Translations under genes and position numbers: made by a program
Part shown: piece by piece, positions 33,731 through 50,063 of the stretch
Position numbering within the stretch: the first letter of the stretch is position 1
How the letters are laid out: each line of letters begins with the position of its first letter
IMG/VR virus record: IMGVR_UViG_3300037067_027616
Coordinates: 160,001 to 224,000 of that record
DNA: 64,000 bases
Reading direction: 5' to 3' (one strand)
From: a virus
Lineage: Duplodnaviria; Caudoviricetes
Notes under the pieces: generated by a model
What the model was told of the DNA's origin: nothing
Databases searched by the model: none
What the model saw: only the letters and a program-made list of their open reading frames with translations

Positions 33731-34375
33731 TTAGAAGTTAAGCCATCGGCGCAATTTTATAGGTGACACCTTTTCCTTGAGATATACGTCTGCCTTGATT
33801 TCAAACTGTCCCCAGGCCGTGAACTCGAGGGCGAAGTTTGTGGATCGGTCGGTCACCTCGCGGGTATTGATATCGAAAGTCTCATGAAGATGGTAGATCA
33901 CCTTTTCAACCTTGTTCATGAGATCGGGGTCGAGAGCACCAAGGGTTACCTTGACGGTATAATCCGTGCGTTGCTTGGCGGCACCGTGGACGAGATAGAA
34001 GATATCCTCGACATTTACTTTGCTGATGTTTCCCATGCCTTTCGTTGGCGCCACGGCACTTTGGATAATGGACATACCTGCCCCGCCAGATCCAGATCTT
34101 GTAAGTGCCGAGCCGGCCATTTCAAGATCCGCCAGGTACTTTGAGTCCACTGAAGCGACTTTTGTCACGGGCATTTTCGGGGCTTCCCCGAGCTTGATGC
34201 CCGCAGGTCCTATGCTCACCTCTCCGCCGGACACCAGGCGATCCACGGTGGCGTCCATCAAAGTGATCAGTTGTTGTGCGAATATGACGAGGCATAAAAG
34301 GATGAAGGCGTATTTTGTAAGTTGTTGTATGAGTGGCATATACGCGACTAAACGGTTTACTTTTATTTCGTTCAT
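33731..34375 (-). CDS. Membrane-anchored prokaryotic YEATS (pYEATS) domain protein
   Basis: N-terminal TM; VEKVIYHLHETF...NFALEFTAWGQFEIKADV. Confidence 0.75.
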   Translation of the reverse strand: MNEIKVNRLVAYMPLIQQLTKYAFILLCLVIFAQQLITLMDATVDRLVSGGEVSIGPAGIKLGEAPKMPVTKVASVDSKYLADLEMAGSALTRSGSGGAGMSIIQSAVAPTKGMGNISKVNVEDIFYLVHGAAKQRTDYTVKVTLGALDPDLMNKVEKVIYHLHETFDINTREVTDRSTNFALEFTAWGQFEIKADVYLKEKVSPIKLRRWLNF

Positions 34376-35860: not shown

Positions 35861-35937
35861 TGGTGCGCCCGGTGGGATTTTAACCCACGACCATCGGTTT
35901 TAGAGACCGTCGGCTCTACACGCTGAGCTACGGGCGC
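35861..35937 (-). tRNA. Amber suppressor tRNA (CTA anticodon)
   Basis: GCGCCCG acceptor, GCTC/GAGC D stem, CGGT-CTCTAAA-ACCG, T loop TTAAAAT, CCA. Confidence 0.82.
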
Positions 35938-35944
35938 ACGATTA

Positions 35945-36256
35945 TCATGCCGTCTTCAGCCCAGAAAAAACGGTTCCTATGTCAAAGCACGCCACCGCAG
36001 TGATCTGCCCATCGAGATCCGGCTCGTGGAAAGCACTGAACCGCTTTTTGTTCATCGTGAGTATGCTTTCCCAAGTACGTATTTCTATGAGGTTTCTCAC
36101 TGCAAGGAACACAATGGTACCGTTCCCCCAGACACGGAAAAGTTCACCGTGTTCCAAAGAGTATTGAGCCAATGCGTGTGCACCTTGAACCAACCGGTAT
36201 GTTTCTGAAAGATCCTGGCGCACCAACACGTACATTTTAGGCTGTTGTGGGGACAT
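35945..36256 (-). CDS. Pth2-like peptidyl-tRNA hydrolase
   Basis: KMYVLVRQDLS...VQGAHA...EPD....TA; start taken at MSPQQPK. Confidence 0.75.
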   Translation of the reverse strand: MSPQQPKMYVLVRQDLSETYRLVQGAHALAQYSLEHGELFRVWGNGTIVFLAVRNLIEIRTWESILTMNKKRFSAFHEPDLDGQITAVACFDIGTVFSGLKTA

Positions 36257-36476
36257 GTTGTATCTCCTCCACAATCGCCCAATCAGGCTCGTTACCTTCG
36301 CGAGGACGCTCGATACGCTCATACTCCACTCCCCTTAAAAGGCCATAGGCAATGAGAACGTGCCGACATCTCCTCGACTTCGGTCCGTGCTTCCATCCGC
36401 TCGCCTTGATTTCGATGGCGAGTTCCTTGATTTCCTTCTTGAGTGACGCGATGTGTTCATATATGCTTGTTTCCAT
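36237..36476 (-). CDS. Small protein upstream of Pth2
   Basis: LK.EIK.LA..IK...RH..IAY.LLRG..YE.IE; SD sequestered in a hairpin. Confidence 0.65.
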   Translation of the reverse strand: METSIYEHIASLKKEIKELAIEIKASGWKHGPKSRRCRHVLIAYGLLRGVEYERIERPREGNEPDWAIVEEIQHVPTTA

Positions 36477-36478
36477 GG

Positions 36479-36583
36479 TACCTTCCTTTATGGTTTGGTT
36501 GACTTACAGACACTACCCAAAACAAAGGAAGGTCATGGAGGCTTTAAGACTCGTACCTATGTGAATCCAGACACCTATCTCAT
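36479..36583 (-). promoter_or_regulatory. Amber-containing leader (MR*VSGFT*VRVLKPP-UGA) with an anti-SD hairpin
   Basis: TAAGGAG-6 nt-ATG at 36583; in-frame TAG at 36575-77 and 36557-59; ACCTTCCTTT pairs with downstream AAAGGAAGGT. Confidence 0.7.
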
Positions 36584-37060
36584 GGGGTTCTCCTTATGAC
36601 AATCAGCTTCTCAATCGAAACGAGGTTAAGAAGTGTACAACGTGTGGAGGCTTCCTGTATATTTTTCTTGGCCGCTTCTGCTTTTGTAACGCTTTCTGCC
36701 GAACACGTTATCCGTATCCTGCCGTTCGATAACGACAACGTAATGGAATCGTATTCCGTTTCTTCAGGTATCTCCGTAAGGAGACACTTAAGAAGGGATA
36801 ATTCAAAGAGTTCCCGGGGTTCAAATGAACCAGCTACGTCCGGGAGGAGGTTATTAGCTGTCTTGTTGTACGATGCCAACTTCCGTATCCCCTTTAGAAA
36901 TTTCCTGCGGTGACAGAAGCCCGGCGATTTCCATGGAGTACATGGTGACATGCTTCTCGGCAACGTCCCTGGCTACAAGCCCCATCTTGCATGCCTCGAC
37001 CATTGTATTGGTGAGGTCGTTCATGACGGACAGCCTGTCGAGTACTTCATCGCTTAACAT

Positions 37061-38261: not shown

Positions 38262-38666
38262 TCAACCCTTAACGAGTTCGAGCAAATGGGTACACGGCTT
38301 ATTTTCGGAGTGTTCCGATACGACGCACCCGCATACAGTGCATATGATAGTTTTCGGCTTCAAAGGGCAGGTTATGACACGGTCATATGCTTTTAACAAC
38401 TCTTTTACCAAGTTTGGCTTATGCATTACCAAATTCTCCTTCTCATTTTTTGAGAACTTCTTGATGACGCATTCTCTTTTCAAAGCCGCGCTGCGACTGC
38501 TACACTCCTCCACGTGTACAAGCCTTACTGGCAGTCCCAAGGCCTTCACCGATCGGGCACCTTTACCGGCGTTGTGGGTGGCGACCCTGCGTGGTACGTC
38601 ACAGGTCATTCCCGTGTAGAGAGCGCCTTTGGAGCATCGGACCATGTAGACGTACCAAGATTTCAT
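38262..38666 (-). CDS. GIY-YIG nuclease (YhbQ-like)
   Basis: WYVYMVRC..G.LYTG.T....R...HN.GKGA, RSAALKRE. Confidence 0.88.
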   Translation of the reverse strand: MKSWYVYMVRCSKGALYTGMTCDVPRRVATHNAGKGARSVKALGLPVRLVHVEECSSRSAALKRECVIKKFSKNEKENLVMHKPNLVKELLKAYDRVITCPLKPKTIICTVCGCVVSEHSENKPCTHLLELVKG

Positions 38667-49382: not shown

Positions 49383-50063
49383 TTATGCCAAATCACTTAT
49401 AAAGCCTTGATTATACCGCTTATATGATGTTCGTCTTCCGTTGGAGTGGTTCACGACCATGTCATCTCGCACCCGTATAGTACGGACCTTGTCACCCCGC
49501 ATACCACTTCCGACCTGCCCTCGCCTGGCATCATTCACGTTTCCGGTCACTTTTGACGTGAGCCTGTGGTGGATCCTCTGGCGCAACACGCTCATCGCTT
49601 GTTCCTTATTTTGGTGCTGGCTACGCTCCGATTCGCATCTCACAATAATGCCCGTCGGGATGTGCTTCACCTGTACGGCAGAATCCGTCACGTTTCGGTG
49701 TTGTCCGCCTTTTCCGGAACCGCGCGCTATTGAGATCTCTATGTCACTACACGGTATGTCCACCTTTACCCCGGGGATCTCTTCGAGGACGGCCACTGTG
49801 ATGGTGGAAGTCTGTACACGGCCGCGCTTCTCTGTCGGAGGTATCCTTTGCCACCTGTGACCGCCCGGCTCGTTCTCAAACGTTCTTGCGGCGTCTTCTC
49901 CCGATATTTTGATGCAGACGTAACCTGGTCGCATCTCCAGGACACGCATCTAATATCCCTTCAAAACGCACACCTTTCCATAAATCCTGAACTGATCTTC
50001 AACTAAAAGCTTTGCATCGTCTCCGCCTTCGGCGGCTCTGATTTCCACTATGATTGATTGCAT
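49383..50063 (-). CDS. Short RF1-like peptide chain release factor with in-frame TAG at codon 38
   Basis: GGAGG SD, MQSIIVEIRAAEGGDDAK...KGY*MRVLE..., E.G.HR.QRIPPTE..GRVQTS, GGQ, SQ..NK. Confidence 0.85.

Follow-up and report, generated by a model that had tools for sequence, protein, structure and literature searches.

The window analysed here, a 64,000-nt stretch corresponding to bases 160001-224000 of a single 466,729-bp contig classed as viral in IMG/VR (record IMGVR_UViG_3300037067_027616, Caudoviricetes), carries on its minus strand a short leader open reading frame (ORF) interrupted by two in-frame UAG codons. This leader precedes the genes of a 79-amino-acid (aa) helical protein, hereafter the small ORF, and of a 96-aa protein of the Pth2 fold, themselves followed by a suppressor tRNA gene with the anticodon CUA. 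We consider it likely that the leader is a switch in which read-through of both stops by the suppressor tRNA would bring a ribosome to an arrest site, melt a hairpin covering the downstream Shine-Dalgarno (SD) sequence and turn on the two proteins. Sequence comparison with related phage loci shows a leader stop matched in type to the tRNA, a conserved putative arrest motif, a conserved predicted anti-SD, and a module lying next to a suppressor tRNA.

The leader and its module in the window

A first-pass annotation of the window, made from the sequence alone, had described the elements of this leader and the order of the genes below it (small ORF, then Pth2-like ORF, then tRNA(CUA)). Direct reading of the sequence found all of them in place, as follows.

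36596-36590, minus strand: leader SD sequence TAAGGAG, with a 6-nt spacer to the leader ATG
36583-36533, minus strand: leader mini-ORF of 16 codons plus stop, peptide MR-stop-VSGFT-stop-VRVLKPP-stop
36583-36581, minus strand: leader ATG, followed by AGA
36577-36575, minus strand: first in-frame UAG (codon 3), next base G, followed by GTG TCT GGA TTC ACA
36559-36557, minus strand: second in-frame UAG (codon 9), next base G, followed by GTA CGA GTC TTA
36544-36536, minus strand: Lys-Pro-Pro codons AAG CCT CCA, the presumed arrest site, directly before UGA
36535-36533, minus strand: leader stop TGA
36539-36517, minus strand: 5' arm of the predicted hairpin (anti-AUG and anti-SD), starting in the last Pro codons and the stop
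36498-36472, minus strand: 3' arm of the predicted hairpin, holding the SD AAGGAAGG (36488-36481) and the AUG (36476-36474) of the small ORF
36476-36237, minus strand: 79-aa helical protein of an unnamed family, with the motif R-H-x-H-I-A-Y ... G-x-x-Y-E-x-I-E
36235-35945, minus strand: 96-aa Pth2-fold protein, starting MYVLVR, with an alternative ATG at 36256
35937-35861, minus strand: suppressor tRNA with anticodon CUA, beginning 7 nt past the Pth2-like stop

Leader conservation across related phage loci

Related loci were gathered by similarity to the 96-aa protein, the leader being disregarded. They comprised 25 IMG/VR loci and 80 loci out of 177 JGI metagenome matches, to which were added from GenBank the Lak megaphages, three of the largest known uncultured phages and two cultured Stenotrophomonas phages. 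A leader was scored when a start codon was followed by an in-frame stop within ten codons, with an optional second stop, and when a basic residue plus Pro-Pro or Gly/Ser/Ala-Pro came next, located 35-100 nt upstream of the small-ORF AUG. A leader fitting this pattern occurs in 79 of the 81 loci having at least 120 nt upstream of the small ORF, as compared to 2.7% of the controls, which bears out the conservation in homologous loci that the first-pass annotation had put forward as a check. The related loci provide 65 distinct leader sequences, most of which are preceded by an SD-like purine run. Of these 65 leaders, 55 have their first in-frame stop at codon 3 and 43 contain two in-frame stops. 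In two loci (L003 and L040) the leader continues the frame of the upstream gene, to whose end it is fused, and the first TAG is the stop of that gene. When IMG/VR was searched with the exact 17-codon DNA pattern bearing TAG, six matches were obtained, three of them true modules; the pattern with TGA gave three matches there, all of one sequence and devoid of the module, and an opal version was not found.

Thirteen distinct leaders form the 17-codon class to which the leader of the window belongs, and in which the entropy at codon positions 1, 2 and 3 is 0.56, 0.48 and 1.25, respectively. An invariant Gly is written in all four codons, two Pro and one Val are free at the third base and likewise occur in every synonymous form, and this third-base variation extends to the codons located past the second stop. 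Because the variation is dominated by third codon positions, sequence comparison shows the leader to be, on this codon signature, translated past both stops; and since the signature spans both of them, a peptide under selection could exist only if both stops are decoded.

The homologous leaders end in KPP-stop, RAPP, RGPP, RSPP or RGP-stop. A C-terminal Pro-Pro impairs termination and arrests ribosomes "in all genetic contexts tested" (PMC3834316), and RAPP and RGPP are versatile arrest cores to which EF-P gives no relief (PMC12992588, PMC10951233). As in arrest-peptide attenuators, a short, conserved and apparently translated ORF thus stands directly upstream of the genes, with a known arrest motif at the predicted stall site.

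Match between the leader stop and the suppressor tRNA

A suppressor tRNA is present in almost every related locus, its 5' end following the stop of the 96-aa gene at a median distance of 6 nt, and at no more than 15 nt in 48 of 56 distinct loci. Among the distinct leaders, 58 combine TAG with a tRNA(CUA) and two combine TAA with a tRNA(UUA) (L007/L047 and L087), with no discordant case; five other TAG leaders lie on fragments without the tRNA. The phages Lak-C1 and Lak-B7 constitute a third TAA-UUA lineage. TGA, which is the one stop that tRNA(UUA) cannot read, closes both the leader and the 96-aa gene in the UUA loci, and in the CUA loci the 96-aa gene ends in TAG in 3 of 54 cases. Of 108 in-frame stops, 100 have a purine as the following base, as compared to 24 of 65 final leader stops. 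A 3' purine is a context favouring amber suppression in Escherichia coli.

The tRNA(CUA) of the window is closest to the phage tRNA-Arg(UCU), with 76% identity, a proximity that is not diagnostic of the amino acid carried; the similarity includes the acceptor stem. Its elbow is unusual, with a TTAAAAT T-loop (A for the usual C56) and a D-loop without the usual GG, and may contain a co-varying 19:56 pair.

Genome setting and genetic code

The phage genome uses the standard code, in which UAG is an ordinary stop. TAG terminates 131 of the 501 ORFs of the genome according to a crude ORF call, and the number of frame pairs joined when a stop is read as sense is 73 for TAG, 84 for TAA and 119 for TGA. 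UAG is therefore a real stop needing to be overridden, TAG-joined frames not being in excess, and the tRNA(CUA) is therefore a true suppressor. Translation table 11 gives a high coding density, and the combined rise in density and joining of split genes that marks a TAG-recoded phage (code 15) was not found in this genome. Whole-genome TAG recoding was accordingly rejected, the gain not being specific to TAG. The genes neighbouring the module have no in-frame TAG and the 16-codon leader holds two. A genome scan for further TAG-gated genes, defined as a start codon, a stop within 8 codons and then a long open frame, revealed no excess (363 matches for TAG, 337 for TAA and 539 for TGA).

No promoter site and no terminator were found by scanning the minus strand from the 195-aa gene to the tRNA; a transcription attenuator is therefore unlikely. 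An Rfam search of the leader region returned nothing beyond one sub-threshold microRNA-like match. In a DNA search of INPHARED the tRNA alone was matched, in Sinorhizobium phage Phosso, where it has no Pth2-like neighbour.

The window contains 47 tRNA genes, all on the minus strand, one of them having the anticodon CUA. A GIY-YIG endonuclease gene is located among them (38262-38666, minus strand), and a prokaryotic YEATS-domain protein is encoded downstream of the module (33731-34375, minus strand). Upstream of the leader lies a further conserved frame that was absent from the first-pass annotation.

36853-36580, minus strand: conserved upstream frame of about 90 codons, whose TGA shares bases with the leader ATG (ATGA)

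The gene before it encodes 68 aa and stops at 36854, and from there on no ATG, GTG or TTG occurs in the frame. The frame is in +1 relative to that gene, and its protein sequence is kept in L039. A frameshift, a non-canonical start or reinitiation are possible explanations.

A predicted hairpin over the downstream SD

The last A of the leader TGA together with CCTTCCTTT is perfectly complementary to AAAGGAAGGT, in which the SD of the small ORF (start 36476) is located, a complementarity also reported in the first-pass annotation. In the minimum free energy (MFE) fold this complementarity belongs to a longer pairing of 36539-36517 with 36498-36472, in which CCA-UG faces the AUG-G of the next gene and CCUUCCUU faces the SD AAGGAAGG. 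The second Pro codon and the leader stop are thus paired with the downstream AUG, and the bases following them with the SD. Pairing of the leader segment with the SD is predicted at -18.8 kcal/mol, whereas 533 other 24-nt windows of the same locus, used as controls, average -6.7 kcal/mol and none of them does as well.

Across loci, the pairing of the 24 nt around the arrest motif with the SD and AUG surpasses that of at least 95% of the control windows in 16 of 18 cases. The paired sequences vary from one locus to another, and the CCU-CCN Pro codons themselves often constitute the anti-SD. The end of the arrest motif is located 51-89 nt (median 65) from the small-ORF AUG, and the leader stop 2-68 nt from it; the first distance being nearly constant and the second variable, the motif rather than the stop is the landmark. 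The structure that would sequester the SD is overlapped by the predicted position of the stalled ribosome, a further feature of arrest-peptide attenuators.

The two downstream proteins

Nearly all loci have a member of the 79-aa family immediately before that of the 96-aa family, most often with an overlap of about 20 nt, and both proteins are strongly conserved in their own right. The AF2 model of the 79-aa protein has a predicted local distance difference test (pLDDT) of 90.7. Fold searches with it returned only generic helical hairpins (Z of 6 at most) and no informative match, while its 148 database relatives are all annotated as hypothetical and it has no match in Pfam.

The model of the 96-aa protein has a pLDDT of 94.7 and shows the alpha/beta fold of Pth2, superposing on the archaeal enzymes and on human bit1 with a template-modelling (TM) score of about 0.8 (Foldseek TM 0.78-0.81 to 2zv3, 3erj, 1xty, 1wn2 and 1q7s). 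The profile of its family also matches solved archaeal Pth2 chains (E = 6e-5). Two of five relatives match PF01981 at E = 0.002, which is under the gathering cut-off. For the catalytic residues of Pth2, which we take to be a Lys and an Asp as in the Sulfolobus enzyme, the Lys of the G-K motif aligns with Arg14 of the 96-aa protein (a position occupied by Arg, Lys or Gln among family members) and the Asp with the near-invariant Glu71 of an E-P-D motif, His20-Ala21 being kept. By these comparisons, the protein is a distant Pth2 relative and not a member of the Pfam family as defined; because it falls below the Pfam threshold and the presumed catalytic pair is altered, we refer to it as Pth2-fold.

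Single-chain fusions of the small-ORF and Pth2-like domains, 189-202 aa long, occur naturally (P0075, P0101 and P0111), which argues that the two proteins act together. The complex prediction for the 79-aa and Pth2-like proteins scored 0.00, a value that speaks neither for nor against a complex, three rows with TAG=Q having been left out.

Some loci differ in their Pth2-like gene or its surroundings. The gene has an insertion of about 300 codons in the loop following the first helix in L031:3001-4140 and one of about 50 codons in the same loop in L005:4004-4456, this loop being the one that carries an in-frame TAG in other lineages. A phage tmRNA gene is located 2.4 kb upstream of the module in L015:219-594, and in L098, which lacks the small ORF, a gene for an RtcB-like RNA ligase stands immediately before the Pth2-like one (upstream of 1501); both constitute further links to tRNA and ribosome rescue.

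The proposed switch

In the mechanism we favour, RF1 and the phage tRNA(CUA) would compete at leader codons 3 and 9. If RF1 wins at either UAG, the ribosome would leave early, the hairpin would stay closed and the 79-aa and Pth2-fold proteins would not be made. If the tRNA decodes both, the ribosome would reach Lys-Pro-Pro-UGA, where termination should be slow. With the last Pro codon in its P site, it would cover about 15 nt, a stretch coinciding exactly with the hairpin arm that faces the downstream AUG and SD. The SD would then be freed and both proteins translated, probably with translational coupling. The presence of two UAGs would make the output approximately proportional to the square of the suppression efficiency. 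From these elements we infer that the ribosome stalls and that read-through turns the switch on, as well as the roles of the two proteins.

The first-pass annotation had proposed that only ribosomes reading through both ambers open the anti-SD hairpin, a view to which the coding signature, the match of stop and anticodon and the geometry of the motif all lend support. It had also worded the condition for Pth2 translation as a failure of UAG termination; the gating of the genes by suppression stands, and the condition is better described as a phage tRNA out-competing RF1.

Several lineages carry a TAG in the operon itself. The 96-aa gene begins ATG-NNN-TAG in two uncultured phages of 735 kb and 636 kb (L035 and L038), the first gene of the operon has a TAG at codon 3 in the cultured Stenotrophomonas phage CM1 (L036), whose operon starts ATG-AAG-TAG as does that of the cultured Stenotrophomonas phage RAS14, and a TAG lies at about codon 31-34 of the 96-aa gene in L004, L018, L029, L031 and L035. 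In all these variants expression is conditional on read-through, a dependence that supports the proposed sign of the switch.

A number of observations weigh against this mechanism. Five leaders of CUA loci seem to end in TAG, and some RAPP-type leaders extend 5-29 codons beyond the motif, the stop itself being no landmark. The 136-nt fold of the window is moderately better than shuffled sequences (z = -2.3), 5 of 200 shuffles being equal to it, the fold of L001 has a z of +0.2 against shuffles, and pairing with the SD is weak in L020 and L023. That a 16-residue peptide would stall at KPP-stop is an assumption taken from longer model proteins. Lastly, PF01981 is not matched by the protein of the window, and the replacement of the Pth2 catalytic Lys and Asp by Arg/Lys/Gln and Glu leaves a hydrolase activity unproven.

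Concerning the two proteins, their foremost role might be to clear peptidyl-tRNA or ribosomes stranded by read-through. A feedback by action on the suppressor tRNA itself may be ranked second and an aid to suppression third.

Alternative explanations

The leader could chiefly control the suppressor tRNA rather than the proteins, which we regard as unlikely. Translation gated by read-through might shield the transcript from Rho-type polarity and thereby raise tRNA output in a positive feedback or, conversely, a ribosome terminating 4-8 nt before the tRNA might hinder its 5' processing in a negative one. The tRNA lies so near the Pth2-like stop (median 6 nt, 48 of 56 loci within 15 nt) that a terminating ribosome would overlap it, and the scan found no promoter-like or terminator-like site between the genes, both of which would suit such control. 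However, in L004, L014, L018 and the Lak phages the tRNA is located upstream of the leader and the module is still kept, and both proteins are themselves strongly conserved. A control of the tRNA would moreover be compatible with a switch of the proteins and not exclusive of it.

It is rather improbable that the sign is reversed, read-through and stalling repressing the downstream genes by A-site mRNA cleavage or ribosome queuing, so that these would be expressed when UAG termination is normal. Stalls at Pro-Pro-stop do lead to stop-codon cleavage and tmRNA tagging in E. coli (PMC3834316), and the eukaryotic AMD1 tail limits expression by read-through and arrest (PMC13025110). Against this, pairing of the SD and AUG is predicted for almost every locus when no ribosome occupies the arrest site, the default state therefore being off, and the lineages whose Pth2-like gene carries a TAG, internally or at codon 3, need read-through for its expression, the same sign as in the mechanism we favour.

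That the leader senses no suppression at all seems very improbable. TAG would then be a sense codon, in a code 15-like manner, at the time when the operon is expressed, and the leader an ordinary arrest peptide monitoring another input, e.g. EF-P, prolyl-tRNA or Pth activity. TAG-recoded Lak phages do carry the module, some relatives have a TAG inside the Pth2-like gene, and a two-codon ORF followed by a stop is reminiscent of the lambda bar minigenes, which load Pth. In the genome studied here, however, TAG ends about a quarter of the ORFs and no recoding signal was found, two TAGs occupy the 16-codon leader while the neighbouring genes have none in frame, the stop is placed at codon 3 in 55 of 65 leaders, and leaders with TAA are precisely those accompanied by a tRNA(UUA).

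That a short ORF, two TAGs and a complementary stretch have come together by chance has a negligible probability: short ORFs and complementarities of 8-10 nt are common and the strict 17-codon DNA pattern also matched three unrelated places in IMG/VR, but the presence of the leader in 79 of 81 loci against 2.7% of controls, its coding signature and the co-variation of stop and anticodon refute it.

Comparison with known systems

The switch by suppressor-tRNA read-through set out above would represent an arrest-peptide attenuation with a new input, the suppression of a stop codon. With SecM-secA, MifM-yidC2, ErmCL-ermC and the RAPP/RGPP type (ApdA/ApdP/ApcA), it shares a short ORF placed upstream; a Pro-rich motif at the C-terminus, which in several homologues is RAPP or RGPP itself; and a hairpin hiding the SD of the next gene, the segment covered by the stalled ribosome being here a prediction. 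The signal of those systems (a pulling force, a drug or a ligand) acts on the stall, whereas that of the phage leader would act before it, through the decoding of the stops. The phage peptides are also much shorter (8-30 residues), and the genes concerned are those of a Pth2-fold protein and its partner instead of secretion or resistance genes.

TnaC-tnaA stalls at a Pro-stop junction, as predicted here, and in engineered TAG-containing tna leaders downstream expression likewise requires amber suppression (PMC6412442). These engineered leaders are man-made and act on Rho-dependent transcription termination, whereas the phage leader is natural, is predicted to act on translation initiation and is tied to a phage suppressor tRNA.

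The prfB gene of RF2 resembles the leader in that an in-frame stop senses its own recognition and sets the expression of a termination-related gene. It differs by a +1 frameshift inside the RF2 gene that senses RF2, where the phage would sense tRNA read-through in a separate leader, and by the lack of the arrest motif and SD hairpin which characterise the latter. The leader does not belong to the prfB type, being a separate ORF without frameshift whose output is not a release factor. A closer formal parallel to prfB is the RF1-like gene of the window described below, with its in-frame UAG and no frameshift.

Recoded Lak and crAss-like phages also have a phage suppressor tRNA, and the idea that in-frame stops time expression, as well as standard-code relatives with suppressor tRNAs, was already put forward for them (Borges et al., bioRxiv 10.1101/2021.08.26.457843). 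The in-frame stops reported in that study are spread across late genes, whereas a dedicated sensor in a standard-code phage is proposed here, and it makes no mention of a leader, an arrest motif or a hydrolase. The C-terminal tail of AMD1 shares with the leader a regulatory read-through followed by arrest at a downstream in-frame stop (PMC13025110), but it is eukaryotic, relies on spontaneous read-through, represses via queuing and has neither SD hairpin nor dedicated tRNA. Full-text literature searches found no natural leader of the UAG-suppression type, nor any link between Pth2-like genes and phage suppressor tRNAs.

An RF1-like gene and the wider meaning of the module

The same window encodes a release-factor homologue interrupted by the stop that RF1 reads.

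50062-49383, minus strand: RF1-like release-factor gene without domain 1, its ATG at 50062 behind a GGAGGG SD

An in-frame TAG is located at 49952-49950, with an ATG directly after it. When read through, the gene matches positions 113-323 of the prfA/RF1 model in one stretch with 214 bits, as compared to 177 bits for the short ORF, and it keeps the PPT (PxT-type) and GGQ motifs. Its IMG/VR relatives have an in-frame TGA or TAG, or frame breaks, in the same region. Because an RF1 homologue broken by its cognate stop and a UAG-gated leader occur in the same phage, these data suggest active control over the balance between UAG termination and its suppression.

Large standard-code phages commonly carry suppressor tRNAs, whose targets have been a puzzle; for instance, the authors of the XacN1 study found no targets for its suppressor tRNA (PMC5852040). 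How recoded phages shift from the host code to their own is likewise an open question (bioRxiv 10.1101/2021.08.26.457843). The leader described here would provide a conserved natural target for phage suppressor tRNAs, reading out the efficiency of suppression, and would extend arrest-peptide regulation to a new input, stop-codon decoding. The two uncharacterised proteins would be first candidates for factors working with the suppressor tRNA, and the leader, as a compact natural part of about 130 nt, could serve to report or gate on amber suppression in synthetic biology.

Tentatively, the leader may be seen as one arm of a phage circuit for measuring and setting the "genetic-code state" of the infected cell, the RF1-like gene being its second arm; this broader picture is possible but distinctly less secure than the switch itself. 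If it is true, the leader would drive a two-part effector, made of the helical and Pth2-fold proteins, beside the suppressor tRNA, and UAG read-through would be held at a set level or flipped as a switch. Such a circuit would account for the "orphan" suppressor tRNAs found in standard-code phages and could represent a stepping stone to the full TAG recoding of the Lak phages.

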